From an uncultured Spirochaetota bacterium (GTDB lineage: Bacteria > Spirochaetota > Spirochaetia > SZUA-6 > Fen-1364): a DNA stretch of 64,000 bases. Under the pieces are notes generated by a model. That model made no database searches and had not been told where the DNA came from. It worked only from the letters and a program-made list of their open reading frames with translations. The stretch covers positions 270,168 to 334,167 of the forward strand of contig CAWAHW010000005.1 in the NCBI GenBank assembly GCA_963781885.1, given 5' to 3'. Positions 40,959 to 62,425 of the stretch are shown here, piece by piece; the first letter of the stretch is position 1; every line of letters begins with the position of its first letter. A program made the position numbers and the translations under genes.

Positions 40959-42277
40959 TGTCCTAACTAACACATCGTTGACACTTTTCGCAGCACATCC
41001 TAACAGTTATCTCGCTGCCCTAACCAAGCGGCCGAGCTCATCCTGGATGCGCAGCTGCCGCTCGTCAAGATAGCCTAACAGGGTGTCGCGGTAATACACG
41101 CGCCACTTGCCCTTCACGATCTGCTCCAGTCCGACGTACTTCTCGATCAGCGTTGTGCTGACGACGACCCACTTGCTGGAGCCCCAGCGGATTGCCCCGT
41201 TGCGGCAAACGTATTTCGTGCACATGCCTTCTGGATACTTCCAGGTCCTAGTTATGCGTGGAAGGCGGCGAGGGGAGTGGCGGTAGAACTCCTTGGGCCT
41301 CCTCTGTCCCAGCGTCTGATGAGGACGCTGCACGTTGTAGAAATGACGAAAGGCGTCGAACTTGTGTTGCTGCTGGACCAGGCTGTAGGCGGCCGGCTTT
41401 GTGGCCTCAGCCTTTAGCTCTTCGTGCATCCGCTCGTGACTACCGTTCTGCTCGGGGTGAGCCGGGTCAGAATAGACCGGCTGGATCCCCAGATCCATGA
41501 GCCAGACGGCAAGCCGCGTAAGCCGCGAGAGGCTCACCCCACTGGCGAAGGGCTCTCCGTTGTCACTGTGGATCTGTTTGGGCAAACCGTACTTCTTGAA
41601 AAGGGCCTCAAATACGGCCTTTGTGCCCTCATATGTGGGATTATGCATTCCCACCACCGCCAGCACAAAGCGGCTGTAGGCGTCCATGACGGTCAGCGGG
41701 TAGCAGTAGCGCCCGTCGCCCATGCGGAACTTCCCTTTGAAGTCCACGCTCCAGATCTCGTTGGGGGCCTTCGCCTCAAAGATCGGGTGCATCTCTCGAA
41801 TGCGACGAACGCGGCGCCGCTTCTTGACTAGGCCATAGCGTTTGAGCACCAAGGCGATCGTCGCCACCGAAGGCACCTTCCGCCGACCACCATACCTCTC
41901 CGTGAGCAGCTGAAAGATCTTCAGCGGACCCATGCGAGGCCACCTGCCTCGTATTCGTACGATTGCCCGCTCGATGCTCGGTGCAGTGCGGTTCCACACC
42001 CGCCGCGGAGCCCGCGATTGCTCCTTGAGTCCCGCTACACCCCGCAACAGATAGCGCAGTATGTAGCGGTAACCTAAAGTACGGGAGATACCATAAGATT
42101 TGCACAGAGCAGTGAACGTGTGCTGGCCTGACTCCCACTCAAGAACGAAACTAGCCTTTTCGTCCATCGCTGACCGTTCCCTCCAGGGCATCCCGCTCTC
42201 CTCTCGGAGAAAACGTCGCCCAAAAAAGTGTCAACGATGTGCTTAGAATTCTGTCAACGATGTGCTTAGACAGGACC
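40959..42277 (-). mobile_element. IS481-like element, copy 1
   Basis: Ends TGTCCT.../...AGGACC with repeated TGTCAACGATGTG; TTG duplication. Confidence 0.9.
41007..42191 (-). CDS. IS481-family transposase
   Basis: MPW start, HTH, WSVDFKG, HSDNG, NGSHERMH. Confidence 0.9.
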   Translation of the reverse strand: MPWRERSAMDEKASFVLEWESGQHTFTALCKSYGISRTLGYRYILRYLLRGVAGLKEQSRAPRRVWNRTAPSIERAIVRIRGRWPRMGPLKIFQLLTERYGGRRKVPSVATIALVLKRYGLVKKRRRVRRIREMHPIFEAKAPNEIWSVDFKGKFRMGDGRYCYPLTVMDAYSRFVLAVVGMHNPTYEGTKAVFEALFKKYGLPKQIHSDNGEPFASGVSLSRLTRLAVWLMDLGIQPVYSDPAHPEQNGSHERMHEELKAEATKPAAYSLVQQQHKFDAFRHFYNVQRPHQTLGQRRPKEFYRHSPRRLPRITRTWKYPEGMCTKYVCRNGAIRWGSSKWVVVSTTLIEKYVGLEQIVKGKWRVYYRDTLLGYLDERQLRIQDELGRLVRAAR

Positions 42278-42284
42278 TTGAAGC

Positions 42285-42398
42285 ATCTAACATAGAGTTC
42301 AGCACCCGGCCCGCATCAGAATTGCACCACACCGATTTGCTCCGGAATTGGGTCTTTCCTACAGATTCAGCCTGGAGTGCTGCAACGACTTGTTATGT
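42285..42398 (-). repeat. attC 9 (family A)
   Basis: Same architecture as attC 1. Confidence 0.9.
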
Positions 42399-42741
42399 TC
42401 AAGGCAGAATGGACTTGTAGTCTACGCTATGCAGAAGTCAATTCCTTTGGCCAGAATTGCGTCCGTAGGTCTTGCCAAGAGCGGCGTTGCCACGGTCTGC
42501 GGGGATTGAACAATAGGTACGAGCGCAAAGCCGAGCGCGGCTCTGTTTCCCGCTGCATCCGGACTGAACGGAAGAGAAGAAATACTTGGTCGTCCAGGCT
42601 TGGGACACCGGAAAGAAAAAGTCTTTCGGACCAGAGGCCGCGATGTTTCAGAGGTCCAAATGACCCTAACCTCTTGAAGACTCTTCAACTATCCAAAGAT
42701 TCTGGAAGAAGGTGAAAGTTTCATTTTCCTTTGAACATAAC
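42392..42741. other. Cassette without a convincing ORF, copy 2 (350 bp)
   Basis: Diverged copy of 37312-37661. Confidence 0.75.
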
Positions 42742-42850
42742 ACAGAGTTCAGTACCCGGCCCGCATCAGATCAAAACCACAAAGATTTGCCCCGGAATTG
42801 GGTCTCAGCGGGAAGATTCTCGTCCGGAGTGCTCCAACGATTTGTTAGCC
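42735..42850 (-). repeat. attC 10 (family A)
   Basis: Same architecture as attC 1. Confidence 0.9.
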
Positions 42851-42918
42851 ACACCCGTCAGAAACCGGCAGCAACGGGATGGAGTAGGGCAGTTTTATGG
42901 CCGGTCTTGTCTTGTGAT

Positions 42919-43523: not shown

Positions 43524-43528
43524 GTCCG

Positions 43529-43557: not shown

Positions 43558-43588
43558 CTACAGTTTGTGGCAAATCCGTCTTGGTTGT

Positions 43589-43703: not shown

Positions 43704-43789
43704 GGTTTTCCTCTATGCGTTCAACCCTGACGCTTTTTGCAGAAGACCCTTTCGCTTTGACTATCTTCAATCTTCAAAACCATATTCCG

Positions 43790-44179: not shown

Positions 44180-45418
44180 TGGCAGAACGCTCCTTTAACA
44201 ATAGATGCTGGCCCTGCAATATGACAGTGATGGTACTGCACATGGCGTCTTTTGAAAAGAAAGAAAATCTGAATGTCCTACCTAACACATCGTTGACACT
44301 ATTCTAAGCACATCGTTTACACTTTTTTCTTTGCCCTCATTGTGCGCCCAAGATCATCTTGGATGCGTAGGGTACGCTCGTCAAGGTAGCCGAGCAGTTT
44401 GTCACGATAGTACACCCGCCATTTCCCCTTGGCCATCTCTTGCAGTCCGACATACTTCTCAATCAGGGTTGTGCTAACAACCACCCACTTGCTGCCTCCC
44501 CAGCGAAGGGCTCCGTTACGGCACACATACTTCACACTCATCCCCTCAGGGTAGTTCCATTTCGGAATCTTGCGGGGAAGGCGCCGCGGGGAATTGCAGT
44601 AGAACTCTTTGGGCTTCCGTTGCCCTAGCGCCTGATGCGGACGTTCTTCGTTGTAGTCGCGGCGGAAGGCATCAAGCTTGCGCTGCTGTGGTCCCAGGCT
44701 ATACCCAGGCGGTCGTGTTGCCTCCGCCTTCAGCTCCTCATGCATGCGCTCATGGCTGCCGTTGTGCTCGGGGTGCCCAGGATCGGAGTACACAGGCTCA
44801 ATCCCCAAATCCATGAACCAGACAGCCAGCCGCGTTAGCCGTGAGAGACTGACAGCGCTGGCAAATGGCTCCCCGTTGTCGCTGTGGATCTGTTTGGGAA
44901 GGCCATGCTTCCTGAAAAGTGCCTGAAATACAGCCTTTGTGCCCTCAAAAGTAGGTCGGTGCATCCCCACCACCGCCAGCACATAGCGGCTGTAGGCGTC
45001 CATGACAGTCAGCGGGTAACAATAGCGCATGTTTCCCATGCGGAACTGACCCTTGAAGTCTACACTCCAGATCTCGTTAGGAGCCTTAGCCTCAAAGATT
45101 GGGTGCACCTCGCGAATCCGCCGTACCCGTCGACGCTTCTTTACAAGACCGTAGCGCTTCAAGATCAACGCAATGGTCAACACCGCCGGCAATTTGCCCC
45201 CACGCTGCCTCTTGCGTAGTTTCTCCTGCAATGTTTTATGTCAAGCGAAATTCCCCGAATTCACCAACAAGCTTCCCGAAAAACGCCACGGGAAATTCCC
45301 TGATTTTGCCATCGGGTTGTCTCCCGTGGATCACATGGATGGCGGCGGTGGCCTCCTTCCCAAGCGCCGCCATCGCACCACCACGCCGTGTTCTTCCGGA
45401 CATGGGGGATAGAATACG

Positions 45419-45622
45419 TTACCAGGTAGGCGAAACTGCTCCTTTCTCCCGGTTGTTGAGCATGACAAATTTCCGAACCTGCTCCTGAAGGTCCTGCTCG
45501 GAATACACATTGGGATGGGGTTCGTTTCCGAATTGCTGGAGCAACCGGCGCTCAAGCTCATCGTCGATCTCCATCCGTCCAGGGAAGCGGAGCCGGTCTA
45601 TCATGATCCGTGTGAGTGTCAT
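45419..45622 (-). CDS. 67-aa ORF inside IS21, coupled to istB
   Basis: ATGA overlap with the istB stop; AAGGA RBS upstream. Confidence 0.5.
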   Translation of the reverse strand: MTLTRIMIDRLRFPGRMEIDDELERRLLQQFGNEPHPNVYSEQDLQEQVRKFVMLNNREKGAVSPTW

Positions 45623-46410
45623 TTTGGTTCCTTTCCTACAGGCGCCTTTGGCTGGGCGCCGTCTCGCATAAGGGCGTGCGTCATGCGATAACTCTTGGCT
45701 TCGAACATAATCAAGTGCCCATGGTGGACGAGCCGGTCGATCATCGCTGCTGCCATCTGCTCGTCGGTGAATATGCCTCCCCATTTGGAGAACTCCAAGT
45801 TGGTCGTCAGGATCAGGCTCTTGCTCTCATAGCTGTCGGCGATGATCCGAAACAGCAGTTGCGATCCCTCCCGGTCCACGGGGACATACCCCCATTCATC
45901 CAGGATCAGAAGGTCAAGTTGCTTGAGATCGCGCACAAGGCGCTCAAGGGTACCATTGCGATAAGCGTCGGACAGTTTGAGCACGAGTTCGGTGACCGTG
46001 AAGAACCGGACCAAGCTGCCCATCTCGCACGCGCTGATCCCAAGGGCGATCGCCATGTGTGTCTTGCCGGTCCCCACGCCGCCGTAGAGGACAAGGTTTT
46101 TCTTCTCCCGCACGAAGAGGCAGGCCAGCATTTCCTCCCGGCTGAAGGTAGGGGGCAGACGGATGTCCGAAAAATCGTATCCCTCAAAGCTCTTGAAGAC
46201 TGGGAATGCGGCCCTGTTCAGCAGTCGGCTCTTCTTGCCGCGCTCTCTTCGGGCTATCTCCTCGCCCAGCACACGATGGAGGAACTCCTCTTGCCGTGGT
46301 GTCGCCTCCGTCTCGCATAGCTCGGCGACCCTTGCGGAGAGCATCAACCTCCGACTGAAGTCCATGATGTCGCGGCGCTGCTGCTCGCGCTCCAATCCAG
46401 GTTTGCTCAT
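45619..46410 (-). CDS. istB: IS21 helper ATPase
   Basis: GGVGTGKT, LDEWGY, DRLVHH. Confidence 0.93.
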   Translation of the reverse strand: MSKPGLEREQQRRDIMDFSRRLMLSARVAELCETEATPRQEEFLHRVLGEEIARRERGKKSRLLNRAAFPVFKSFEGYDFSDIRLPPTFSREEMLACLFVREKKNLVLYGGVGTGKTHMAIALGISACEMGSLVRFFTVTELVLKLSDAYRNGTLERLVRDLKQLDLLILDEWGYVPVDREGSQLLFRIIADSYESKSLILTTNLEFSKWGGIFTDEQMAAAMIDRLVHHGHLIMFEAKSYRMTHALMRDGAQPKAPVGKEPK

Positions 46411-47873
46411 GACTGGCCAAGCCTCTGGAGGAGCTCGTCATAGACGCGCAGATCCTGCCCACGCTCCGGGGCCACCTCCAGTCCATAGCCGCTGATGCGG
46501 GCCGCGAGCGCCGCCGCGTCGCAGAAGGCGGTCCGGTTGATCCGCAGGCCCTCCTCAAGGGCATGCAAGGCCGTCTCGAAGCTGTATGTAGTCGTAAGCT
46601 GGTGCATCGTGCGCAGGGTAGCCCGCAGCTGGTCCCTAGGCTGCCTGTCCATGGCGTCCTTCAATACCGTCGGGACCATTTCCCTGATCCCGCTGTTCTG
46701 CCACGCCCCTGCATTGTTCATCAGTACGGCCAGGGAGGTCCGGTAGTCGCAGGTGTCGCTTCGCTGTGGCCCATAGTTGCGGGTGTGCCCAACCAGCACC
46801 TGCTTGCTCTCCCTGTCCAGGATGTCGATGGTGTGGGCGCGGATTGCTACCAACACCTCCTGCCCTGCGTACTCCGGGCACGTGGAATAATGGTGCCGGG
46901 CGTCGATGCGCACCTTCCCGTAGCCATCGGCCTTAACATATTCGTAGCGCACGACATCGAAGGGCATCCGCGGCGGGGGCATCAGGGCCGAGCGGTCGAC
47001 CTCGAACAGCTGCCCGATGGGCTGCAGCTTCTTGTAATGCGCCTCCGCCGCCTTGGCCTCGTGCAAGTCCAGCAGTTGGCGGTTGTACGCCTCGATGTCG
47101 GTGAACTCCGGCTCCGGCACGAACAGGTTCCGGCGGGTATAGCCAATCTTGCTTTCGACGTTCCCCTTCTCGTGGCCCGATTCCGGGTTGCAGAAACGCA
47201 CGGAGAAGCCGTAATGCGCCCTCATCCGCTGGAACAGCTTCGCCTCGTGGATGATCTCTCCCACCCTGCGCCCTACCCCCGTGGCGTTGTCGAACACGAT
47301 GAGCGGGGACACCCCGCCGATGTAGCCGAAGATGTCCTTGAGCCCTTGGCAGACGCATTCAGCGGTCTCGCCGCCGAATACCTGAGTGAGGCTGTTGTTG
47401 CTGTACGGGAAGGAGAGCGTCAGGTATTTCTTGCGCACCAACTCCCCCCGCTCGCGGAAGTCCGCTTCGCCGAAGTCGCACTGTGACTCGCCTGGGTGCC
47501 AAACCAGCTCCTGGCTCGCCCGCAGGGCCCGCTGTGCACTGAGCCTGTCCTTCACGTAGCGCTGGACCGCGTTGTACGCGCAATCGTAGCCCAGCGATTC
47601 GGTCTTGAGCCGGTCGTGGATCCGCTTCGCCGTATGGCGCTGCTTGTACCAGCGCCCCTGGTCCTCCTCGAGCCACCTGTCGATCAGCGGCTTGTGCGGA
47701 TCGAGCTTCGATGGCCGTGCGGCATCCTCCGGCGGGTGTGGCGAGAAGTCCTCCTGCTTCAGGTATTTCCGGACCGTCTTTTCATCGATGGCCAGCTCCC
47801 GCGCGATTCCCGCAACTGATTGTCCATCACGGGCCATCTCCTTTATGCTGTTAATCTGGGGCATGTTGAGCAC
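46407..47873 (-). CDS. istA: IS21 transposase
   Basis: HTH, QCDFG, FDNA, EKGNVE. Confidence 0.92.
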   Translation of the reverse strand: MLNMPQINSIKEMARDGQSVAGIARELAIDEKTVRKYLKQEDFSPHPPEDAARPSKLDPHKPLIDRWLEEDQGRWYKQRHTAKRIHDRLKTESLGYDCAYNAVQRYVKDRLSAQRALRASQELVWHPGESQCDFGEADFRERGELVRKKYLTLSFPYSNNSLTQVFGGETAECVCQGLKDIFGYIGGVSPLIVFDNATGVGRRVGEIIHEAKLFQRMRAHYGFSVRFCNPESGHEKGNVESKIGYTRRNLFVPEPEFTDIEAYNRQLLDLHEAKAAEAHYKKLQPIGQLFEVDRSALMPPPRMPFDVVRYEYVKADGYGKVRIDARHHYSTCPEYAGQEVLVAIRAHTIDILDRESKQVLVGHTRNYGPQRSDTCDYRTSLAVLMNNAGAWQNSGIREMVPTVLKDAMDRQPRDQLRATLRTMHQLTTTYSFETALHALEEGLRINRTAFCDAAALAARISGYGLEVAPERGQDLRVYDELLQRLGQS

Positions 47874-48404
47874 CTCTCTTGATCCTCCTCCGTCGTGGTT
47901 GGTCCCTCGACGGGGATTCTTGATTCTTGGGAGCAGTGTTTCAACTGCCCCTGATTTTTCTCGGGAATTTCCCGTGGCGAAATCAGGGAACACCTCGTGG
48001 TGTTTTCAGGGATTTTCAGCTTACATTAAACACTGCAACTTCAACGGCCCCAAGCGCGGCCTCTTGCGCCGCCACTCTACGATGGCCTCCTCTACTTCCT
48101 TGGAGGTACGGTTCCACACACGTCGAGGAGCTCGCGACTGCTCTTGCAGCCCGGCCATTCCCTGGAGCAAATACCGCGCTATGTATCGGTACGCAAGGGT
48201 CCGTGAAATCCCGAAGGATACGCACAGATCACTGACGCTGCTCTCACCTGACTCCCATTCCAGAATGAAGCTCGCCTTTTCGTCCATCGCTGAACTCTCC
48301 TTCCATGGCATTGAGGTCTCCTCCTGGAGAAGACCATGCCCATAAAAGTGTCAACGATGTGCTTAGAATTCTGTACACGATGTGCTCGGACAGGACCGAA
48401 AACC

Positions 48405-48519
48405 TTCTAACATAGAGTTGAGCACCCGGCCCGCATCAGACAAAGACCACGAAGATTGGCACCTGAAGCGGGTCTATTCGAGCAAATTCAGCCTGGAGTG
48501 CTCCAACGACTTGTTATGC
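48405..48519 (-). repeat. attC 12 (family A)
   Basis: Same architecture as attC 1. Confidence 0.9.
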
Positions 48520-48543
48520 ACATTTGACCTTACCTACTGCGTA

Positions 48544-49809
48544 CTAAGCGCGGAACGATTCCAGCGCCCGAAAGTCCAACGTGGCAAAGTAGTCGTCCTC
48601 GGTCTCAGCCCTCCGGATCTGAAGCACTGAGCCATCTTCCCTAAGTAGTAGCTCCGCCGAGCGAAGCTTGCCGTTGTAGTTGAAACCCATTGAATGGCCA
48701 TGAGCCCCGGTGTCGTGAATGACAAGAAGGTCTCCTATTTGGATTTCAGGTAGGTTGCGGTCCACCGCAAATCTGTCGATCGGTTCGCAGAGTGATCCAG
48801 TTACGTCGTACAGGCAGTTGTGAGGAGCCTGTTCCTTCCCAAGAACGCTAATGTGGTGGTAGGCCTCGTACATGCCTGGCCGCATGAGATGGGCCATAGA
48901 GGCATCCAGTCCCACATGCTTTTTGTAGATGTCCTTGATGTGCAGTACTCGCGAGACCAAATAGCCGTACGGACCGGTGATCATCCTGCCGCACTCCATG
49001 AAAAGACTCAGCGGATGCAGGCCGTTGGCTTGAATGATCTGATCATACACCCGTCTGATTCCGTTGCTTACGACCTCCAGATCAACCGCACGTTCCTCCG
49101 GTTTGTAGGGAATGCCAATGCCGCCGCTGATGTTGACGAACTCCGTGCGGAGGCCGGTGCGTTTGTTGGCCTCGACACTGAGATCAAACATCATTTTGGC
49201 GGTATCAACGAAATACTGTGGATTCAGTTCGTTGGAGGCGATGAAAGTATGGAGTCCGAAACGGGTCGCCCCTCTGTCGCGCAACTGCTGAAGACCTTGG
49301 AAGACCTGTTCCCTGGTGAATCCGTACTTCGCCTTTTCGGGATTACCCATGATGAAGCTGCCATCCCGGAGCTTGCCAGGGTTGTAGCGGATGGAGATCA
49401 GCTTCGGAATGCCGCCGTTGCGTTCCAGAAAGGGGATGTGGCTTATGTCGTCGAGGTTGATTGTAGCGCCCAGCTCTCGGGCCTTCACGAACTCTGCCGA
49501 GGGAGTGTCGTTTGAGCTGAACATGATCTCGCTACCAATGAACCCGGCCCGTTGGGCAAGCAGCAGTTCGGGCAGTGAGCTGCAGTCCGTTCAAAACCCT
49601 TCGGTTCTCAGAATCTTGAGAATGAAAGGGTTGGGTGTCGCCTTGACGGCGAAGTACTCCTTGAATCCCAGATTCCAACTAAAAACCTTCACCAGTCTGG
49701 CCGCGTTCCGACGGATTGCTCTCTCGTCATAGATATGGAACGGCGTGGGAAACCGGGAGGCGATCTGTTCAAGCTGTTTCGGCTCGAAAGGATGGGTCTT
49801 TTGTTGCAT
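48544..49809 (-). pseudogene. lysA: Diaminopimelate decarboxylase with one in-frame TGA at 49591-49593 (cassette)
   Basis: TPFHIYDE, FAVKA, GSLCE, GAHGHSMGFNYN; both ORF pieces are in one frame. Confidence 0.85.
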
Positions 49810-51199: not shown

Positions 51200-51284
51200 T
51201 CAGACAGAGACCACAAAGATTGGCGCCGGAAGCGGGTCTGATGGATCAAATTATAGTCCGGAGTGCTCCAACGACTTGTTAGAT
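51200..51284 (-). repeat. attC 13 (family A), L'/R' arm deleted
   Basis: Only the central loop and GTGCTCCAACGACTTGTTA remain. Confidence 0.8.
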
Positions 51285-52096: not shown

Positions 52097-53168
52097 CTTG
52101 GTGTCCCAAACTGCCGCTTCTTGTACCAAAATCTGGGTCTTCTCCGTTTTGAGTGGGTCAATTCTACGAGAATTCAGGAAGCATGCAGGTCAGAACTTTC
52201 AAGCGTAGATACTCTTCATCATGGATGCCATACGCTCTTCGCTGTATGACGCGGATTTTATTGTTCAGGCCCTCCACGAATCCAAGAGGCACTTTGTTTT
52301 CGGGACGGCAATGTGAAGCGATCCCTTCCCAATGCTTCTCAACCAATTTGGAGAAGCTCTGGAAAGGTTTCAGTCGCTGCCACTTCAAGGAAGCCTTCCA
52401 GTTCTGAAAGAACTTCAAAGCCCATGTCTCTGAGCGGTAGTCCCATAGCTGAGGGAAGGATTCTTTGAGCAGATATGCGACGTTTAGCCTTTTATTCACT
52501 GTCCACAACACTTTCAATGCTCTGCGACCATCAAGCGTTAGGTTCTCTGAGGAAGAAAGCAAAGTGTAACGTTGACCCTTGATGAATTTCTTCTGTCTTT
52601 CCGTTGCCCTTCGGTATTCCTTGCGTCGGACCGTATCCAAGGCGTCGTTGAGGTGACGAATGACATGAAACTTGTCGTAGAGAATTGATGCTTGAGGTGC
52701 ATGGCGCATAGTGGAAGCTTCAAAGGGCTTCCACCTGTCCATCACCGCAAGCCGTATTTTGCTGCATTTTCGGGGGGTTAAGAAAGCATAGAACTCGTCC
52801 ATGCTTTGTTCACTGCGATCCTTGCCGCCAAACCAGATCGGACGTCTCTGCTGGAGATCACTGACCACGATGCGGTAACTATGCCCCTTACGGATGCTGA
52901 TTTCATCTATACCGATGGCCTGCGGCCTGGCGGGTCCAGCTCGACGGAGCTTTTCTTCCATGTATTCTATTTCAAGGGCTTTCGCGGTTTTCCAGTCCAA
53001 CCGCAATTCCTTCGCAACGTCACTGATAGAGGATTCCTGACAACGCTTTCCAACGTAGTATGCAAACCGCTTCGTATAACCGTTGGTCTTCGCAAGCCAA
53101 TCCATCTTTTCTTGCCGGACCATATCATAGCGTAGACATCGTGTGCGTCGAGATTCAATCTCTATAGA

Positions 53169-54688
53169 CCTTACAGATGCATAAAAGGCAGATATTCGCT
53201 TGACGTGTAGATGAAAAAGTGGCGTCCTGATATGGCAAATCCTGATTCCGCCAAGAGTCAGATCTACCGACCAGGAGGCCACCAAACGTGAAACCCAGTA
53301 GAGCACAAATCCACTCCCGCGTCTACAAGTTCCCCGAGCTTCGCTTCGAAGATCAACGATTGACATCTTTTTCTGGGACCGTGGTACTACAAGCCCTTTT
53401 CAAAAACATGGATGTCGCGGGCAAACTACAGCGATGCTTCACCCATCGGAAGAAGGGTTCCGTGGTAGGGTTTCACAGCGTCGCCTTGTTGATGATCCTG
53501 CACTTGATGCTGGGCTACCGTCGGCTGCGTGATATTGATCGCTACCGAGAGGACCCGCTGATTCGACGAGCACTGGGATTGCGGCGGCTGCCTCATGTCT
53601 GTACGGTGAGTCGGATGCTCTGTCGGGCTGATGCGCACAGCGTTGCCAACCTTCAAGAGTTCAATCGTGCTTTGGTCCTGCAACGTCTTGAACATCAGGG
53701 GCTGGCACGGGTCACCTTGGACTTCGATGGCTCGGTGATCTCCAGCGGCCGTTACGCCGAGGGGACGGCCATCGGGTATAATGATAAAAAGAAGGGGGCC
53801 AGAAGCTACTACCCGTTGTTCTGCACCGTCGCGCAAAGCGGTCAAGTCCTGGATGCCCATCATCGGCCAGGCAACGTGCACGACTCCAAGGGCTCACTTG
53901 CTTTCATTGGGGCGTGCGTGGCCGCGGTGCGAGCTCAGCTGCCCGGTGTGATTGTGGAGTCGCGTAAGGATTCAGCGTTTTTCAGCGATGAAACAGTGAG
54001 TTTTCTGGATTCCCAGAAAGTCGAGTTTAGCATCTCCGTTCCCTTCGAGCGATTCTCCGAGTTGAAGGAGATCATTGAATCCAGGAGCACGTGGCAGCGC
54101 CTGGATTCCGAGTGGTCGTACTTCGAGTTGCCCTGGTCGCCGAACTGCTGGAGCAAACGCTATCGGTTTCTGTTCCTCCGCCACAAGGTGAAAAAGCAAC
54201 GAAAGGAACCTGTCCAGTTGGAGCTCTTTGTTCCTCACGAAGAAGGCTACGAGTTCAAGGTGATCGTCACCAACAAGCGAGGTAAGGCGAAGGGAATCCT
54301 CTTGTTTCACAACGGGAGGGCGTCGCAGGAGAACATGTTCTCAGAATTGAAGGACCAGTGCCAGATGGATTATGTCCCCGTGCGTCGCCTGGCCGGCAAC
54401 CAGTGGTACTTTCTTTCGGCAGTGATCGCGCATAATCTTTTTCGTGAGCTTCATATCAAAAGCTGCACAAAGGATCGGACCACGACAGCGAAACGGTCAC
54501 CTTTATGGAGCTTCCGCGAGGCAACGACCATTCGTCAGGTGCTTCTCCACAGGGCAGGTCGACTGACCAGACCGCAGGGGCGGCTACGACTTACCCTGAG
54601 CGGCAACGAAATTACACGTAAAGAGTTCCAAACATATCTGGCAGCCCTGGATGCCTCTGCATAGCGATCTTTTTATGCAACGTTAGGG
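53169..54688 (+). mobile_element. IS1380-family element nested in ISL3
   Basis: CC...GG IRs sharing TGCATAAAA; TAGA duplication. Confidence 0.88.
53288..54664 (+). CDS. IS1380-family transposase
   Basis: TLDFDGS, YYPLF, RPGNVH, DSAF, R..EN..ELK. Confidence 0.88.
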   Translation: MKPSRAQIHSRVYKFPELRFEDQRLTSFSGTVVLQALFKNMDVAGKLQRCFTHRKKGSVVGFHSVALLMILHLMLGYRRLRDIDRYREDPLIRRALGLRRLPHVCTVSRMLCRADAHSVANLQEFNRALVLQRLEHQGLARVTLDFDGSVISSGRYAEGTAIGYNDKKKGARSYYPLFCTVAQSGQVLDAHHRPGNVHDSKGSLAFIGACVAAVRAQLPGVIVESRKDSAFFSDETVSFLDSQKVEFSISVPFERFSELKEIIESRSTWQRLDSEWSYFELPWSPNCWSKRYRFLFLRHKVKKQRKEPVQLELFVPHEEGYEFKVIVTNKRGKAKGILLFHNGRASQENMFSELKDQCQMDYVPVRRLAGNQWYFLSAVIAHNLFRELHIKSCTKDRTTTAKRSPLWSFREATTIRQVLLHRAGRLTRPQGRLRLTLSGNEITRKEFQTYLAALDASA

Positions 54689-55111
54689 TAGATACTCTAA
54701 GGTCTCCGCAGGGAAGGTCTCGAATCAGCTTGCGCTTGCGGTCGTAGATATTTCTATATTTGATTCCGCATAAAGGACAGAGAGTTTTTTTTGAATCCTT
54801 CTCATCCGAATAACGCGTGCCTGGGGGTCCATGGGCATCCCAAATACGATTTGATAGGGCCTTTGTCCTGGGATTTTATACCCGTCGGTGAGTCGGTGTA
54901 ATGCCACTTGGCGACTATAGCGATTTCAAAAGTGCATTGGAATCAGTCATCTCTATACACTACAAAGCTTTGTGTCCGTTTGAGATGCGTTTTTGACCCA
55001 CTCAAAACGGAGAAGACCCCAAAATCTTAACCCAAAATCCTGATTTGCTTTTGCTCAGTGTCCTTTCTCAGGAAGACAGCTTTACTGCAGTAGTAGCCGT
55101 TTAGCGGCCTG

Positions 55112-55449
55112 CTACTTCGGCTCATATTCGGGGCGGCTCGGTGTGAAACACTCAACGGCTTCGCTGTCTTCTATAATCTCTGCACCGTGCGGTTGGTTTG
55201 AATCAAAACACCATCCATCACCTGGCCCGGAACAAATTCTTTGCCAGTTTGCCAGAGCATTTGCATCTTGCCGCTGATTAGGTAGCCGTTTTGAGCTGCT
55301 TCGTGTTGATGCAATGGTATCTTTGCGCCTTTCTTTAGAAAGAAGTGGCAAAGCATAAGTTGGTCGTTATAGGCAATGGTAGTTCAAAAAACGCCGGGCG
55401 GATTCTCAACCGGTTCACGGTCCGACTTGCGGGCTGTCATTCGTGTCAT
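55112..55449 (-). pseudogene. Cupin-domain protein with in-frame TGA and a frameshift (cassette)
   Basis: IPLHQHE..GYLISG, PGD..PHG, ECFTPSRPEY. Confidence 0.75.
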
Positions 55450-55558
55450 GTGGTAATCTTCCTTGTAAAAGAGAGTAGGGTTAGCCACCGCTTTGTGTCA
55501 AAGTGCCCTGCTGGCGCGTCGGAAATCGCAAATTAGGATGAAAACCATTTTTCCATAG

Positions 55559-55672
55559 CCCTAACATAGAGTTGACCAGCGCCGCCGCTTCATCCAGCCC
55601 CACCCGACGACTAGGACAAAGTTGGGTCAATCCAACAAATTCTAAGGCGACTGGTCCAACGATTTGTTAGGT
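55559..55672 (-). repeat. attC 15 (family B)
   Basis: Same architecture as attC 3. Confidence 0.9.
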
Positions 55673-55899
55673 GCCATCGAAATAGAACTTCGTCATTCGG
55701 TTCTCAGAAATGATGTCTTCATATCTCGAGAAAAACCCAGATCTCATTTCGGATTCATTCATAAGGTCTTCGCCCCAACGTTCCGTTGCTTTGGCGGTTT
55801 CCCAATAGAGCTCATACAAGTCCAGATTCTTGCCGCCTGGGGATTCCAGGGGCGCCCCCTTTGGAAACGGTCCGACGACAATCATTAGCCGTCTTACCT

Positions 55900-57296
55900 G
55901 GGATATTGTCAATTGTTGTGGACGAAGAATCTGAAGGATCTTCTCGTCAGGCAACTGCGTCACGAACCTGCTCCCCGTTAATGAACTTGATACCCGCCTG
56001 AACCAGGGGGATGTACTTCGAACCATCGAGTCTGCGCCAGCCCTTCTCGGCTTCTCTACACAGCTTATAGACCATTGCCAGCGTTGCCTTGCGTGTCCCC
56101 GAGCCCTTGGTCTTTCGGTGACGTAGCCGCACGGTGGCGAAGGTGGACTCGATGGGATTGGTAGTGCGTAGATGCAGCCAGTGGGCGGCAGGGAAGTCGT
56201 AGAAGGCGAAGAGGTCCTCCCTGTCCTTCACGAGGCATTCGACCGCCTTGGGGTACTTCTCGCCGAAAGTCTGCACGAACAGTTCGTGGGCCTTGAACGC
56301 CTCTTGGCGCGTCGGGGCAAGGTACTGGTTGTGCAGCATGTCCTTGGCCTTCGCCTGCGTTGATGCGGGCAGCTTGTCCAGGACATTGCCGGACTTGTGG
56401 AACCAGCATCGCTGGATACGGGTTTCAGGCCAGACCTCGGTACAGGCGGCTTGGAAGCCCATCGCCCCGTCGCAGACGGCCAACACGGGGGACTTCTGCA
56501 GACCGCGAGAGCGCAGGTCCAACAAGAGCTCCTTCCATGATTGAGCGCTCTCCCTGAAGCCATCCGAGACCGCCAGCAATTCCTTGTTACCGAAGGGATC
56601 AGCTCCCATGACCACCAGCAGGCAGGACCTCTCGTCCTCCAGTCGGGCGTTGCAGTACACGCCATCGGCCCAGACGTAGACATAGGCTTTGTCTGCCAGG
56701 CTGCGTCTCGACCACTCCTCATGCTCGCTGGTCCAGATCTCCTTCAGTCGCACCACCGTAGTGGCCGAAAGGCCCTTGGCCTGTGGGCCCAATATCGCCT
56801 CCAGCGCGCTGGGGAAATCGTCCGAGGAGATTCCTTTCAGGTAGAGCAGCGGCACCAAGGCATCGATACTGGGTGCCCTGCGCATAAAGCGCGGAAGAAT
56901 TCTGCTGGTAAACCGTTCCTTGCCCATTTCCTCCAGGGCGCGGTCATCCACACGCGGTCGCCTGATAGGCATCGGCCCCGCCCCCGTCAGCACCGTCCTC
57001 TCGGGCATCGTCCCGTTTCTGACGACCAGCCGCCGTCCTTCGCGATTGACCATGTCTTTGAGGCCGTCGACGTACTCTTGGACTTCCGCATCAAGGGCGG
57101 CCTGCAACATCCGACGCGCCCCCTCACGGACGAAGCCTTCCAGGGTGTTCATCGTCTCAGGCATTGCTTCGACTCGCGTCCCGGTGGTAATGTTGCTCAC
57201 GGACGTTCTCCTTCCCAGTAGGCATGTTTGGCGACAATACCTTACCGAGAAGAGGCGTCCGTTTTCTATCCCATCCACAACTTTTGGTTATATCCC
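55900..57296 (-). mobile_element. IS256-family element
   Basis: GGGATA...TATCCC IRs; GTCTTACCT 9-bp duplication. Confidence 0.92.
55947..57200 (-). CDS. IS256-family transposase
   Basis: WADG, CDG, QRCWFH, TTNPIES. Confidence 0.92.
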   Translation of the reverse strand: MSNITTGTRVEAMPETMNTLEGFVREGARRMLQAALDAEVQEYVDGLKDMVNREGRRLVVRNGTMPERTVLTGAGPMPIRRPRVDDRALEEMGKERFTSRILPRFMRRAPSIDALVPLLYLKGISSDDFPSALEAILGPQAKGLSATTVVRLKEIWTSEHEEWSRRSLADKAYVYVWADGVYCNARLEDERSCLLVVMGADPFGNKELLAVSDGFRESAQSWKELLLDLRSRGLQKSPVLAVCDGAMGFQAACTEVWPETRIQRCWFHKSGNVLDKLPASTQAKAKDMLHNQYLAPTRQEAFKAHELFVQTFGEKYPKAVECLVKDREDLFAFYDFPAAHWLHLRTTNPIESTFATVRLRHRKTKGSGTRKATLAMVYKLCREAEKGWRRLDGSKYIPLVQAGIKFINGEQVRDAVA

Positions 57297-58087
57297 GTCT
57301 TACCTTGCCCGCCGACACTTTGTCGGAGTCATACCCCGTCATGTGAAGAAGAGCATTCCGCAGCTCCCAAAGCTCAGATGACGATACATTGAGTCGTTTC
57401 AGGTTGAAGAAACGATCCACAAATTGCTTGAAACTATCCTTCGTCCTCCCGTACGCCAGATAGCCAAAAGTGTCGACTGCAATGAATAAGAGCTTTACGG
57501 CCGAAATGTAAAAATGCGTATTTAGAAGCGTCTTGATCGGTTCAAAGTGGTCGTCATTCATAAGCCGATTGAAATGAAACTTTCCGTCTGTAAAGTACTT
57601 GTCAATGAAATGGGGCTGTATTTCGATTCTCACTGATCGATGTTCTGTTCCGCTGTTTTGAACTGGCATTTCTCCTCTAGTATCTAGCTGGCCGTTGATA
57701 ACGGGCGTAATCACCATCAAAGGATTCCGTGGCGCATTGTGAATCTGGAATATACGTTCAAAAAGCATAGGAAGTTGGCCTGCCTCTGATAGGGCACAGT
57801 AGTCTTCCCAACTCAGTTTGTTGATGGGACTGCTGTGACCTGGGCTATTTGAAGATACGTCAGGAGGAATCGGATACCGCATGGCAGTTTTGTGGTCAAT
57901 AGAAACTCGTGACTTGAGAAATGCCAGCTTCGAGTCGTCTGTTCCTTCCTGGGCGTATTCAGTAGCACCGAGGCTCTCTACTATTCCGTTGTTGATGTCG
58001 ACGAACAAGTTGTAGATCTTTTCTCGCCCGTGCGCTTCGTCCGCCACATGGGCCTCCTTCATTCTACCGTACTGGAAAAATCATGGC

Positions 58088-58202
58088 ACCTAACATAGAG
58101 TTGACCAGCGCCGCCGCATCATCCAGCCCCACCCGACGATTAGGGTGAAGTTGGGTCTAAACAGACAACATCCAAGGCGACTGGTCCAACGATTTGTTAG
58201 AT
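58088..58202 (-). repeat. attC 16 (family B)
   Basis: Same architecture as attC 3. Confidence 0.9.
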
Positions 58203-58221
58203 GGAAATGATGAATTTGGCA

Positions 58222-58408
58222 TCAGAAACGAATGAGATTCTCAAGATTCTTGCCAGCAATTTTCGATGCGACATCTCTTTCTAGCAAGTTTAGCAGTTGG
58301 AATATTGCTAAATAGGCTTTATCGTAACCGATTCCATAGCCCGAGTCAGTACTTACAATAAATCTATCTGGATAAGAGATAATTATTGGAACAAAGTCCG
58401 CAAGCTTA
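58222..58408 (-). pseudogene. C-terminal fragment of an amidohydrolase-like cassette gene, cut by IS66
   Basis: YPDRFIVSTD...KIAGKNLENL pattern. Confidence 0.55.
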
Positions 58409-58493
58409 GTAACCGTCAAAACAACCACACCTTGTAAAGAGGCCTTGAGGAATCAATCCTGAGCCCACGATTTGAGCGCTCAGGAGGTGATGC

Positions 58494-58835
58494 ATGGATC
58501 AAGTCCCCGCGAAAATGAAACAGCGGCGTCGCTCGGCTGCGGAATGGCGCGAGCTGATAAGTGCTTGGAAGCAAAGCGGCAAGACGCGCGAGATGTGGTG
58601 TCACGAGAACGGCGTGGGCATGGAATCCCTACGTCGATGGACGAAGCGGCTTCGAAGAGCAGACGCAGCCGTAGCCTTCGTCCAGATTGAGAAGTCCATT
58701 TCTGTTTCAACGAAGTCCGTCCCGATACACCTTCGCATCTTGGCAAGCGGCGATGTGGAGCTTCAGGGGGAGTTCAGCGAGGAGCTTCTTCGCCGAGTGT
58801 TACGTGTCGCACGGGAAGCGGCTGATGTTTCTTGA
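58494..58835 (+). CDS. IS66 TnpA
   Basis: W...WKQSG..WC HTH pattern. Confidence 0.8.
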   Translation: MDQVPAKMKQRRRSAAEWRELISAWKQSGKTREMWCHENGVGMESLRRWTKRLRRADAAVAFVQIEKSISVSTKSVPIHLRILASGDVELQGEFSEELLRRVLRVAREAADVS

Positions 58836-59172
58836 GTGGGATCGGGTGAAGGTGTTTGTGCGCCCCGGTGGCACAGACCTGAGGAAACAGATCAACGGTC
58901 TGGCAGCGATGGCGCAAAGTGCGATGGCCGGGGATCCACTGTCCGGGAACCTATTTCTGTTCAGCAATAAGGACCGGCATCTACTGAAGGCGCTGTACTG
59001 GGATCATAGCGGTTTTTGCCTGTGGCAGAAGCGCCTGGAGCGGGAGAAGTTTCCCTGGCCGCACACACAGGAGGCGGCACGCGAAATCAGCGTTGAGCAG
59101 CTTCGCATGCTGTTGAGTGGGATCGACTTCTGGAACGCGCATCAGAAGCTGAGCTATCGAAGCGTCATATAG
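58825..59172 (+). CDS. IS66 accessory TnpB
   Basis: DLRKQINGL, LYWD..GF..KRLE..F.WP. Confidence 0.9.
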   Translation: MFLEWDRVKVFVRPGGTDLRKQINGLAAMAQSAMAGDPLSGNLFLFSNKDRHLLKALYWDHSGFCLWQKRLEREKFPWPHTQEAAREISVEQLRMLLSGIDFWNAHQKLSYRSVI

Positions 59173-59211
59173 GACTACCGGGGATCCCGGCTCTCATGAT
59201 AAAGTGCCCGG

Positions 59212-60819
59212 GTGAGCGACAAACTGGGAGCGCTACCGGACGGTGTGAAGGAGTTGCACGATCGTATTCGTCAGCTTGAGGCCAGCCTGGAGAAGGAACG
59301 TGCCGAGAAGATTGAATACCAGCACGAAGCTCTGAAGCATTTCGAGGAGATCCAGCTTCTGCGGCGACGGATATTCGGTCGCAGAGCGGAGAAGCTCAGC
59401 GAGGAAGACCGGCGTCAACTTCTGCTGTTCAACGAGGCTGAGGAAATTCTGGCGCAAGGCAGCGGGCAGCCTGAGGAGCAAACCGTCGAGGTTCGTGCTC
59501 ATAGCCGACGAAAGAGCGGGCGCAAACCCCTGCCGCCCGAGATTCCCCGAGTCGAGACAATTCACGACATCAGCGAAGAAGAGAAGCAATGCGCCTGCGG
59601 GCAACAGATGGGCCGCATCGGGGAGGAGATCTGCGAAAAGCTTGAAGTGATCCCTGCCCGCATTCGGGTGCGCCGTCACGTGCGGCCCAAGTATGCCTGC
59701 CATGCCTGCGAAGGCTCGGGAGACGAGAGTCGAGCAGCAGTTCGTATTGCTCCTGCTCCCGTACAGCTTCTGCCCAAAAGCATCGCCTCTCCCGCCCTTG
59801 TGGCTTACATCATGGTGGGCAAGTTCTGTGATTCCTTGCCGTTCTACCGCCAGGAGAAGCAGTTTGCGCGCATCGGAGTGGAGGTCAGCCGTCAGGACAT
59901 GGCCAACTGGAGCATTGCGGTGTTTCAGAGGCTTCGGCCGCTTCGGGAGTTGATGCGTAGCCAGATCCGTCGAGGCCCTCTGGTGCAGATCGATGAGACG
60001 ACGGTGCAGGTCATGGGGGAGCCCGGGCGGCCCAACACCTCAAAGAGCTTTATGTGGGTATTCCTGGGAGGAAACCCCGGTCAGCCTGTCGTAGAGTATC
60101 AGTACCATCCTACCCGCTCGGGCAAGATTCCTTTCGAGGCTCTACGAGGGTATGAAGGCTTCATCCAAACAGACGGCTACGATGGTTATCAAGAGCTGGG
60201 AAGCCAACCGGGGATCGTGCATGTCGGATGCTGGGCACATGCCCGGAGAAAGTTCTTCGAGGCCAAGGAAGTCTCCAAGACCAAAGGCAGCGCCGATGTC
60301 GCCTTGGCCAGCATCAATGAGCTTTTCAAGATCGAACGGACGCTCAGAGACGAGGATCTTGCTCCCAATCAGTTCACACAACGCCGTCGCGAGCAGACTG
60401 AACCTGTACTTGAGAAGCTGCGCGTATGGCTGGAGGAGCGCGAGGGTCAGATCCCTCCGTCCACGACGCTGGGCAAGGCGATCGGCTACACCGTCGGGCA
60501 GTGGCCCAAGCTCATCCGTTACCTGGACAGCCCGCTGTTGGCTCCCGACAACAATGCCTGCGAGAGGGCCATTCGGCCCTTTGTGATCGGACGCAAGAAC
60601 TGGATGCTGTCAGGAAGCCCCGCAGGAGCGGAAGCCAGCGCGGCATGGTACAGCCTCATCGAAACCGCGAAGAGCAACGGCGTTGAGCCCTATCTGTACT
60701 TGTGTTACATCCTCGCCAGATTGCCCGACAGCAACAACCCTGCAGACTTTCAATTCCTTCTGCCCTGGAATATTTCAAAAGAATCCTTGCTCGATTTCCA
60801 GTCGGGACGTCTGGCCTGA
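59212..60819 (+). CDS. IS66 transposase TnpC
   Basis: DETT, TDGY, CWAHARRKF, DNNACERAIR, LLPW. Confidence 0.93.
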   Translation: MSDKLGALPDGVKELHDRIRQLEASLEKERAEKIEYQHEALKHFEEIQLLRRRIFGRRAEKLSEEDRRQLLLFNEAEEILAQGSGQPEEQTVEVRAHSRRKSGRKPLPPEIPRVETIHDISEEEKQCACGQQMGRIGEEICEKLEVIPARIRVRRHVRPKYACHACEGSGDESRAAVRIAPAPVQLLPKSIASPALVAYIMVGKFCDSLPFYRQEKQFARIGVEVSRQDMANWSIAVFQRLRPLRELMRSQIRRGPLVQIDETTVQVMGEPGRPNTSKSFMWVFLGGNPGQPVVEYQYHPTRSGKIPFEALRGYEGFIQTDGYDGYQELGSQPGIVHVGCWAHARRKFFEAKEVSKTKGSADVALASINELFKIERTLRDEDLAPNQFTQRRREQTEPVLEKLRVWLEEREGQIPPSTTLGKAIGYTVGQWPKLIRYLDSPLLAPDNNACERAIRPFVIGRKNWMLSGSPAGAEASAAWYSLIETAKSNGVEPYLYLCYILARLPDSNNPADFQFLLPWNISKESLLDFQSGRLA

Positions 60820-60881
60820 GTTCATTACCGCAAGACGCCTCGCGGCTACGCACACAGGGGTGTGGTTGTTTTGACGGTTAC

Positions 60882-62028
60882 GTTGGTTCGTCGGGTGCAA
60901 ACAGATCTGTGCGTAGAGCTGGAAACCAATCACTACAGCGTTCCGTGGCGCTACATCGGTGAGCATGTGATCCTTCAAACCGAAAGCGGCGAGCTGAGGA
61001 TCCTCTACGGCGGAAAGGAAATTGCTCGGCATCCGCTGAGTCTTGGACGCAAACAGCGCATCGTGGATCCCCGACACTTCGACGGGGTGGCCGTCACCCG
61101 TGTGGAGGTGCAGGGCACCGATGGCAGGAGGGAAACCGTTAGCGAGCTTCTTCGACCGCTGAGTGACTACGAAGCGGTGGTCGGAGGCCAGGAATGACGC
61201 CACAGACCGACGTGCTGGACAAAATGCTTACACGCCTGAAGCTCACCGCCATTCGCGATCAGCTGGAAAGTCTGTTGGATGAAGCCGGGCGGCGCCAGAT
61301 GAGTCTGCGCGAGCTGTTGGGCTTCCTTTGTGAGGCGGAGATTGCCCGCAAAGACCAGCGGCGCATCACCATGGGGCTGAGCATCGCGAAGTTTCCTTGC
61401 CTGCGCACTTTGGAAGGCTTTGATTTCGAGGCCCAGCCCTCCGTGGATGCGCGCCAGATCCGAGATCTGGCCGCCTGCCGCTGGGTAGCCAACGGGGACT
61501 CCCTCTTGTTCCTCGGCCCACCCGGCGTCGGCAAGACACATCTGGCAATCGCGCTGGGCCGAACCGCGATCGAACGGGGCTACTCGGTGTTGTTTACTCC
61601 GGCGATGGTGATGGCCGCCTCCTTGGCCAAGGCACACGCCGAAGGACATTTGGAGGAGCGGCTGACGCACTACAGCAAGCCCAAGCTTCTTATCGTGGAC
61701 GAACTGGGCTACCTGCCCCTGGAACAGAATGCAGCCCACTTGTTCTTCCAGCTCGTCTCGCGTCGCTACGAGCGCGGCAGCCTCTTGGTGACCAGCAACC
61801 GAAGCGTTGGAGAGTGGGGTGAGGTCTTCGGGGACCCTGTAGTGGCCACCGCTATTCTTGATCGGCTCCTGCACCACAGCCACATCATCACTATTCGAGG
61901 CGAAAGCTATCGACTGAAAGAGAAGAAGCGCTCGGGACTCTACAAGCCGCCGGTGGCGGAGAATCATTCATGAGGGGGGGGGTCAGTTTTGGTGTCGTAA
62001 AGGGGTCAGATCCGGGTGTCGCTTGACA
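60882..62028 (+). mobile_element. Truncated IS21 (istA tail, istB, right end)
   Basis: NHYSVP...LRPLSDY istA C-terminus; GGGGTCAG repeats ending TGACA. Confidence 0.85.
61194..61973 (+). CDS. istB: IS21 helper ATPase
   Basis: [19 protein letters not shown]. Confidence 0.93.
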   Translation: MTPQTDVLDKMLTRLKLTAIRDQLESLLDEAGRRQMSLRELLGFLCEAEIARKDQRRITMGLSIAKFPCLRTLEGFDFEAQPSVDARQIRDLAACRWVANGDSLLFLGPPGVGKTHLAIALGRTAIERGYSVLFTPAMVMAASLAKAHAEGHLEERLTHYSKPKLLIVDELGYLPLEQNAAHLFFQLVSRRYERGSLLVTSNRSVGEWGEVFGDPVVATAILDRLLHHSHIITIRGESYRLKEKKRSGLYKPPVAENHS

Positions 62029-62302
62029 GCGTGAGTCGCTGCGGTACCATTCGCGTGTTTCACAACCAGGTCTTTGTGACGCAAACCCTCAATGAGGAGT
62101 ACGTGGGTCTCGAGGAAGTGGATGACGGGGTGTGATGATCTATACTTCTGTTTCTACCAGATTGGTCGCTACGAATTGCGCACCAACAAGATCCAGGATA
62201 TTATCTCTCGGGTGCCAACCAGTCAGCCCCGGGCGGATCTGACTTCGAGGGTGTTACCGATGTCTTTAGAATAATGTGTTACCCATGTCTTTGGACTGTA
62301 CA
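62029..62302 (+). mobile_element. Right-end remnant of another IS481-like element
   Basis: Encodes VSRCGTIR..EYVGLEEVDDG; TGTTACC(G/C)ATGT repeats ending ACA. Confidence 0.75.
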
Positions 62303-62310
62303 CTCTATGA

Positions 62311-62425
62311 ACATAACAAGTCGTTGCAGCACTCCAGGCAGAATCTGCTCCAATAGACCCGCGGCCGGTGCCAATCGGTGTGGTGCTGTTCTGATGCGGG
62401 CCGGGTGCTGAACTCTATGTTATGT
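62311..62425 (+). repeat. attC 17 (family A), inverted relative to attC 1-16
   Basis: TAACAAGTCGTTGCAGCAC...GTGCTGAACTCTATGTTA on the + strand. Confidence 0.9.

Follow-up and report, generated by a model that had tools for sequence, protein, structure and literature searches.

To our knowledge, the mobile elements known so far to seek out the attC sites of integrons are of two kinds only, the IS1111-attC insertion sequences (ISs) and the group IIC-attC introns. IS1111-attC elements insert inside attC and create no duplication. The text available of PMC11187229 describes the IS1111-attC group as combining a DEDD transposase with an RNA guide (seekRNA), and that of PMC3001079 describes group IIC-attC introns as attC-specialised and strictly oriented. 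Here we describe a 64,000-nucleotide stretch of contig CAWAHW010000005.1 from an uncultured Spirochaetota bacterium (the window, meaning the whole stretch that was analysed), in which IS481-like elements encoding a DDE transposase lie at a fixed distance outside the attC sites of an integron cassette array. Their placement in the window, in the remainder of the genome and in metagenomes indicates that this IS481-like DDE lineage very probably transposes site-specifically to the outer flank of integron attC.

No earlier description of attC-targeted IS481-like elements was found in full-text literature, including the accessible text of PMC9952335, PMC10232235, PMC3607928, PMC9137128 and PMC4889954, with ISfinder and subscription papers outside the scope of the search, and no report of attC specificity within the IS481 family was found in that literature. 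In its accessible text, PMC3607928 notes only 'a few transposases' in the integron cassettes of T. succinifaciens.

Results

IS481-like elements beside attC in the window

IS-A is an intact IS481-like element of 1319 bp (window 40959-42277, minus strand), whose left inverted repeat (IRL), the end upstream of the transposase gene (tnp), lies at the right and points towards an attC. Its termini (TGTCCTAAC...ACAGGACC) form imperfect inverted repeats of ~26 nt, and a ~19-nt motif is present at each end in two direct copies. A single open reading frame (ORF), with no frameshift, encodes a transposase of 394 aa (41007-42191, minus strand) with a helix-turn-helix (HTH) region, matched weakly by HTH_32, HTH_29 and HTH_28, and an rve DDE core (PF00665, 1.5e-19; PF13683), in which the residues D150, D210 and E253 are conserved in the transposase alignment. 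IS481 is the best-scoring family for this protein, with 210 bits against the NCBIfam model NF033577 (208 bits for the related element IS-C) and only 120 bits for IS3; given that both scores fall below the model cut-off of 224, the elements are referred to as IS481-like. The element is flanked by the target-site duplication TTG (40956-40958 and 42278-42280), and on its right side TTGAAGCAT, comprising the second TTG and AAGCAT, leads to CTAAC. This pentamer (42287-42291) is the R' core, GTTAG on the minus strand, of an attC at 42282-42401 (minus strand; nhmmer, 6e-34) with a predicted fold, and it lies 9 nt from the IS-A tip. On one side of IS-A thus lies GTTAG, and on the other, ~67 nt past the IS, come the ribosome-binding site and the ATG of the next ORF, as expected from the suggestion of an earlier note on this DNA that the insertions spare both attC and the cassette ORF.

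A second, diverged element, IS-B (44274-48397, minus strand), is ~75-77% identical to IS-A and is itself interrupted, a feature absent from the earlier note. Its 3' part (44274-45226, with a truncated tnp ORF at 44317-45231) and its 5' part with the IRL (48038-48397) are separated by an IS21-family element on the same strand (45227-48037), which has terminal inverted repeats and the genes istA (46407-47993) and istB (45619-46410; IstB_IS21, 5.5e-62). IS-B is bordered by the duplication GAA (44271-44273 and 48398-48400), and its right side reads GAAAACCTT and then CTAAC, so that the R' core of the adjoining attC (48404-48522, minus strand; nhmmer, 3.5e-36) is again 9 nt from the tip. The earlier observation that IS-A and IS-B, each with a 3-bp duplication, end 14 nt from the C of the attC AAC was therefore confirmed in its coordinates, flanks and duplications. 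The third copy, IS-C (49877-51194, minus strand), is intact, 93.6% identical to IS-A, encodes a transposase of 396 aa (49918-51108) and has no duplication. It abuts the half-deleted attC that had been noticed at 51194: the remaining attC (51200-51284, minus strand) matches profile positions 38-121 only, its first ~35 nt, the R'/L' end, being gone, which looks like an IS-mediated adjacent deletion.

The cassette beside IS-C (48544-49809) carries a gene for a pyridoxal phosphate-dependent ornithine/diaminopimelate/arginine decarboxylase that is missing the first ~86 profile positions of the N-terminal domain. This gene is probably frameshifted, and a 72-aa ORF just upstream (49591-49809) may be its split-off start.

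A fourth, more distant piece is the 3' remnant of a different IS481-like element (62000-62302, plus strand), consisting of a frameshifted C-terminal coding part and the right inverted repeat (IRR), with its upstream part cut by an IS21-family element; its family was assigned by reading of the translation and end repeats, not by a scored search. The remnant ends 10 nt from the R'' ATAAC (62313-62317) of an inverted attC (62308-62428, plus strand; 1.8e-35, a minus-orientation hit), and the distance from its end at 62302 to the C at 62317 is 15 nt, as originally reported. Of the four elements it is the only one facing R'', and its end repeats resemble those of the group not linked to attC described below; it is a single case. 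No copy was found by BLAST in the first 29 kb of the window, in agreement with the earlier remark that the core half is free of them.

Extent and orientation of the cassette array

Core genes with a G+C content of 62-69% occupy window 1-29 kb, and the integron cassette array begins at ~29.6 kb, from where the G+C content is 48-60%. The array contains a 115-120-nt repeat with at least 13 occurrences between 30.3 and 58.2 kb, which on the plus strand reads YTAAC-ATAGA-GTTSAGCAC ... GTGCTCCAAC-GAYTT-GTTAK. A profile made from ten copies of this repeat and searched with nhmmer against the 4.64-Mb, 7-contig genome gave 105 matches. Most are on contig C6 (65), followed by C5 (18, all inside the window), the end of C4 (14), the start of C1 (7) and C7 (1). 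The attC architecture was confirmed, with an inverse core YTAAC-N5-GTTSAGCAC, a core GTGCTCCAAC-N5-GTTAK, a length of 115-120 nt and a predicted hairpin fold. An integrase gene, intI, is present on C6 (69485-70420, plus strand; TIGR02249 score of 400.8 bits, cut-off 265), just past the final attC of that contig (68240) and with its 5' end toward the array. Given this spread of attC sites and intI over several contigs, the window corresponds to the distal extremity of a very large chromosomal integron, which the assembly divided among contigs.

The cassettes run on the minus strand, and three independent criteria agree on this. The intI gene faces the array with its 5' end, which is the usual divergent layout. 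The longest ORF in each of the 58 inter-attC intervals on C6 lies on the minus strand in 43 and on the plus strand in 7, with none in 8, and the minus-strand cassette genes in the window include those for a GNAT protein, a RelE/antitoxin pair, a TetR regulator and an aldo-keto reductase. Finally, the extra L-box base is in the right half, as read on the plus strand, in 91 of 92 scorable attCs (13 were not scorable), and an extra base in L'' of the top strand is the canonical arrangement. As a consequence of the minus-strand array, the CTAAC seen on the plus strand at the right side of each IS represents the R' core (GTTAG) and not R''. The earlier note had taken the core beside IS-A, IS-B and IS-C for R'', a reading that has to be reversed: these elements lie just downstream of R' on the minus-strand top strand, in the next cassette. 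Its further statement that all four elements are co-oriented with the array holds for IS-A, IS-B and IS-C, which share the direction of the minus-strand cassettes.

On the true top strand, the order is attC...AAC-TCTAT-GTTAG, 9 nt of which the last three are duplicated, the IS (IRL, tnp, IRR) and then the rest of the cassette. The IS thus lands within the first ~11-15 nt of the downstream cassette, with the orientation of the cassette ORF, and leaves attC and ORF intact. IntI crosses over between the G and the TT of R', and for this reason the IS belongs to the downstream cassette.

C5 has a further integron integrase gene outside the window (114967-115890; TIGR02249 score of 316.9 bits, which exceeds the cut-off). 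Its surroundings showed no attC of the array family, the closest profile hits on C5 beginning at 300472.

Copies and junctions across the genome

A BLAST search of the genome found nine IS-A-type copies, all inside attC arrays. Besides the three in the window, there are six copies that are 99.8-100% identical to IS-A; C6 has four of these, including one truncated by the contig start, and C4 the other two. This near identity suggests recent activity. The same end, the IRL, always points toward attC, with its tip 7-11 nt from the core in eight of the nine copies; the distances from the tip to the C of AAC in these eight are 14, 14, 14, 12, 15, 14, 15 and 16 nt. All eight spacers differ (ttgaagcat, gaaaacctt, ttgttccgc, aaaacgc, ctggaggcgc, ccaatatgg, cacgatgcgc and aatgaatgagg), as do the outer flanks, and the insertions make use of both attC subtypes present in the array. 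Given these differences, the eight insertions are independent and not copies of one IS-attC unit. With ~129 kb of arrays, a 5-nt window and the right orientation, the chance of such a placement is estimated at p ~0.002 per event and ~1e-21 for eight.

The IS was also found, in Logan contigs, in 4 public runs, whose labels are freshwater sediment, peat and soil. An X2 contig reads through from the IS into attC, where the spacer is different and longer by one base. None of these contigs contained a joint that skips the IS, and they give no evidence of an empty site either way.

Close relatives in a metagenome-assembled genome and in metagenomes

The copies of this genome belong to a close attC-linked clade, here called clade I, whose metagenome members are defined by at least 70% protein identity to the IS-A transposase. 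A scan of species-representative genomes with the single IS-A protein returned one relative, L009, at 83% nucleotide identity in a Spirochaetota metagenome-assembled genome; here a sequence-divergent attC ending in AAC-TCTAT-GTTAT is followed after 9-10 nt by the IS, with a CTT duplication. A metagenome scan with a five-sequence alignment as query gave 80 loci, of which 54 reach the 70% threshold, and for 40 of these 54 the position of the IRL tip was identified and 25 nt or more of upstream sequence was present. The pattern A[ACG]C-N5-GTT[AG][AGT], with its G 14-16 nt from the tip, occurs in 39 of the 40 (25 at 15, 13 at 14 and 1 at 16 nt), and a background of 340 per 403,140 nt was counted for the L'-N5-R' pattern across the same loci. 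The lone exception, L068, lies inside another IS481-like gene and has a CGGA duplication. A plot of such distances in this genome and its relatives had been proposed as a check, and the distances fall at 12-16 nt in eight of nine copies here and at 14-16 nt in 39 of 40 metagenome loci.

Pooling the 39 metagenome junctions, the 8 of this genome and that of L009 gives 48 junctions, all of which differ in the last 28 nt. Their spacers from GTTAK to the tip measure 7 nt (1 junction), 9 nt (17), 10 nt (27) or 11 nt (3), a length that runs of G at the tip make uncertain by one base either way. Upstream sequence of 120 nt or more is available for 32 loci. A complete attC was recognised in 26 of them, the L-box match being 7/7 in 24 and 6/7 in 2, and in all 26 the extra base is in the IS-distal half, the same polarity as in this genome. 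These counts are lower bounds, since the strict attC detector misses 6-nt spacers, a mutated R'' and lengths above 150 nt (L071, L078 and L096/97). At the sensitivity used, the plasmids of PLSDB yielded no representative of the attC-linked clades, all 90 records being below 60% identity (the best listed, 42%). Protein clusters bear only the name 'transposase InsO family protein' and no IS name.

A sister clade on the opposite side of attC

A search of the phylum (401 genomes) found relatives at E <=1e-60 in 40 genomes. Among those whose flanks were read, attC-linked copies occur only in G317, a complete genome of the same class, which has two, at 51% and 48% identity. Here the junction reads CAGGTT[G]AAC-TAGTT-GTTAT, 10 nt and then the IRL. 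The direction of tnp is opposite to that of the cassette ORFs and of the intI gene (G317:C1:477453-478391, plus strand, located upstream of the array), a layout that corresponds to the Treponema-type integron in the accessible text of PMC3607928. The extra base is in the IS-proximal half of these attCs, which places the elements of this second clade (clade II) 10 nt upstream of R'', between the cassette ORF and its own attC. The metagenomes hold a further 8 clade II loci (6 of them distinct) at 47-49% identity with the same GTTAK-10 nt-tip junction, 3 of which have a 7/7 attC of the G317 polarity, so that clade II contributes 8 distinct junctions (2 from G317 and 6 from metagenomes), all at the R'' flank and at 10 nt.

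In a FastTree phylogeny of 94 transposases, for which only a midpoint root is available, one side of a branch with support 100 holds 42 clade I rows, 10 clade II rows and 3 long-branched rows, the latter comprising L104, with GTTAG and 9 nt, and L093 and L098, which have no flank. On the other side are 39 rows at 36-44% identity, in 38 of which no attC was seen; the remaining one, L106, has GTTAG at 10 nt. The attC targeting by an IS481-like DDE element that had been put forward from the window is thus upheld by 48 distinct clade I junctions and 8 in its sister clade.

Several observations concern the more distant relatives. L021 (G277:C12) and L025 (G375:C58), from a 4-Mb Leptospira-like family, each show a tandem of two diverged IS481-like elements in the same orientation. 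Identity of the two to the IS-A transposase is ~36% and 39%, their coding regions are ~217 nt apart and their ends, by reading, only a few nt apart, an arrangement that may represent end-targeting or a composite unit. L016, L020 and L022-L024 have only a ~55-nt end-like sequence at the place of the tandem element. In L110, L113, L116 and L118 (metagenome loci at 36-37%), the IRL tip lies 3-13 nt past a G+C-rich hairpin, CTCCCCC-N3-5-GGGGGAG, and L112 and L120 have the flank gcgtgagggattcgcgcccgcagggccgagac in common; the wider family may favour sites beside palindromic repeats. L012 (G305:C30) is a 5'-truncated, stop-containing copy at 47% identity, directly downstream of the 3' end of a tyrosine-recombinase gene.

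Other features of the array

At the boundary between core and array, a 102-aa ORF (29242-29550) has no Pfam match; its start may correspond to a phage-type integrase N-terminus, which it resembles by eye. A 298-nt segment occurs twice at 92% identity in two cassettes (37343-37640 and 42422-42719) and looks like a duplicated cassette or cassette fragment. Just upstream of IS-A, an IS3-family element (orfA/orfB, 37807-38972) and an IS200-like Y1 transposase gene (39205-39648) lie inside cassettes. The distal array (52164-63971) is a dense nest of other transposable elements: ISL3 (52164-53366), an IS4-type element with DDE_Tnp_1_4 (53288-54664), IS256/Mutator (55947-57278), IS66 with TnpB (58494-60819), a truncated IS21 (60862-61973) and IS3 (62811-63971). 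A fixed spacing to attC was seen for none of the elements in this nest. Two attCs, at 62308-62428 and 62657-62763, are inverted relative to the rest of the array.

Discussion

How the target is read

The elements encode only a DDE transposase, and their choice is specific in site and orientation, with a fixed distance to the R box and a duplication of 3 bp, sometimes 4 bp. It could be argued that no targeting is involved, and that random insertion followed by survival of harmless events, or the spread of one IS-attC unit by cassette duplication or recombination, produced the pattern. Arrays do tolerate insertions, the window holds at least 10 other transposase genes, and about half of the copies lack duplications, which points to recombination between IS copies. 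However, this explanation is hardly tenable: selection cannot focus a 5-nt window and one orientation amid hundreds of neutral positions per cassette, identical IS sequences are found with different spacers, outer flanks and attC variants, and other IS families in the array show no such placement. Co-duplication at the level of the cassette is excluded, since all spacers and flanks differ and the 48 junctions share no longer flanks. A further proposal is that attC is mistaken for an IS end, such that the transposase inserts at an apparent tip, as occurs for IS30 and IS911. The IRR of IS-A, TCAAC-GATGT-GTTAG with 8 nt to the tip, does resemble the attC end, TCAAC-TCTAT-GTTAG with 9 nt to the IS, and the tandem, co-oriented elements of G277 and G375 would fit such a preference. 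Nevertheless, this is improbable, as the likeness that holds for IS-A fails across the clade. Over 25 clade I loci, the match between inverted repeat and flank peaks at 9.2 of 24 positions, against ~6 for a reversed-repeat control; the portion of the repeat that resembles GTTAG differs among clade members (GTTAA, GCTAA, GCTAT, GCTCGG), clade II repeats have no R-box-like motif, and the R'' side, which matches the inverted repeat at least equally, is used in none of the 48 junctions.

The invariant part of the target is AAC-N5-GTTA, the L-box/R-box architecture, and GTTAK or GTTAG alone is ruled out as the signal, since all copies in the 4.6-Mb genome are at attC cores. The reading preferred here, albeit tentatively and at somewhat less than even strength, is that the transposase complex reads the conserved end of attC as duplex DNA. 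Several points weigh against it. The R'' flank read outward (CAAC-GATTT-GTTAT) also contains AAC-N5-GTTA, yet none of the 48 clade I junctions uses R''. Given that R'' is unused by clade I and is the only side used by clade II, each clade must read something asymmetric, be it the spacer sequence, the extra base or the strand. An equal distance is seen in three lineages despite unrelated attC sequences, which fits structure as well as sequence. The case for targeting has limits of its own. The 48 targets all come from one attC family, with the 3' half CGGSGGSGC..CTNAAC-TCTAT-GTTAK, so that the breadth of targets is narrow even though the events are independent; the 5-nt spacer inside the target nevertheless varies (TCGGC four times; TCATC, TCTTC, TCTCT, TACAT, CACAT and TCCAT once each). 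Perfect 3-4 bp duplications flank only four of the seven complete copies with an intact attC in this genome (TTG, GAA, AAA and CCAA), one further copy having TTG/CTG and two none, and the duplication is absent from most metagenome loci. In this genome the imperfect or missing duplications likely arose through exchange of flanks by recombination among the six near-identical direct repeats. Moreover, metagenome contigs assembled from short reads over a 1.3-kb repeat can be chimeric, and only the junction of IRL and attC is safe in them. A further possibility, which we consider less likely than the duplex reading, is that the target is read from structure, either as a folded attC (a hairpin or cruciform, perhaps at the replication fork) or as an IntI-attC complex, with insertion into the duplex arm ~one helical turn from the base of the stem. 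The distance of 9-10 nt is kept in clade I, clade II and the remnant at 62302 despite unrelated attC sequences. Each clade also distinguishes two near-palindromic sides, the side flipping with the position of the extra L-box base, a feature that IntI uses for strand choice, and the attC regions are predicted to fold as expected. On the other hand, duplex DNA is the target of DDE transposases of the IS3/IS481 type, and at L104 and L106, where GTTAG stands at 9-10 nt, no hairpin could be detected. The clade I loci L046 and L079 also lack the distal half of attC, a loss that could postdate the insertion.

Under the preferred duplex reading, the transposase complex would bind the attC end (the L-box AAC, 5 nt and the GTTA R box) as duplex, and strand transfer would take place ~one helical turn outside that end. 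An IS inside a cassette that can still be excised would thereby gain a harmless landing site, and it may travel with the cassettes that IntI moves. It is conceivable, though rather doubtful, that the DDE lineage has gone further and evolved to read the recombination site itself, as a folded attC or an IntI-attC complex, with two sister clades on its opposite sides (R' and R''), and that the integron gives it shelter as well as a means of spreading horizontally. If this were true, the folding of attC in living cells would have a natural reporter in the IS.

A classical DDE insertion sequence that seeks attC would represent a third, independent solution beside the IS1111-attC elements and the group IIC-attC introns. 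It would also differ from them in kind, given that attC is not destroyed and the IS becomes part of a cassette that is still movable. The elements offer a tractable system in which to ask how a DDE transposase finds a recombination site, whether by duplex sequence, by a hairpin or by a partner protein. They bear, furthermore, on the rearrangement and splitting of very large chromosomal integrons: identical IS copies in direct orientation lead to deletions, of which the truncated attC beside IS-C is an example. For those who annotate such elements, the fixed spacing to attC provides a simple rule of recognition.

Comparison with known systems

Like the IS1111-attC group (IS110/IS1111), the present elements are found almost only at attC and in one orientation. 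In contrast to that group, they have an rve DDE transposase, terminal inverted repeats, a 3-bp duplication and an insertion site 9-10 bp outside an intact attC, and none of the features that define it (a DEDD transposase, tips without inverted repeats, insertion within attC) was found. Group IIC-attC introns are likewise attC-specialised and oriented, but they are retroelements, comprising a ribozyme and a reverse transcriptase, that reside inside attC. No feature of such introns was seen in the present elements, in which the only ORF is that of the DDE transposase, although no Rfam scan was run.

With the IS481 family (IS481, IS1002), the elements share a single long ORF encoding HTH and rve regions with no frameshift, and terminal inverted repeats; they differ from it in a score below the 224-bit cut-off and in ends with two direct ~19-nt repeats. 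Duplications in the IS481 family span 4-15 bp according to ISfinder, and IS481 itself has NCTAGN. Those found here are 3 bp (TTG, GAA and AAA; CTT in L009) or 4 bp (CCAA; CGGA in L068), mostly under that range.

Among DDE elements, IS1397 and ISKpn1 (IS3 family) and other ISs that target repetitive extragenic palindromic (REP) sequences insert at the loop of the palindrome. They resemble the present elements in their DDE chemistry and in occupying a fixed place in short, repeated, hairpin-forming palindromes; here, by contrast, the IS lies outside the stem, and what forms the palindrome is a site for site-specific recombination. The 'res hunters' Tn5053/Tn402 are multi-gene DDE elements (TniABQ) that target the res sites of resolvases, and so also seek recombinase sites, whereas the present elements combine a single transposase gene with integron attC. 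By analogy, the REP-targeting IS3-family elements and Tn5053/Tn402 may be regarded as the nearest DDE counterparts of the attC-targeting IS481-like elements.

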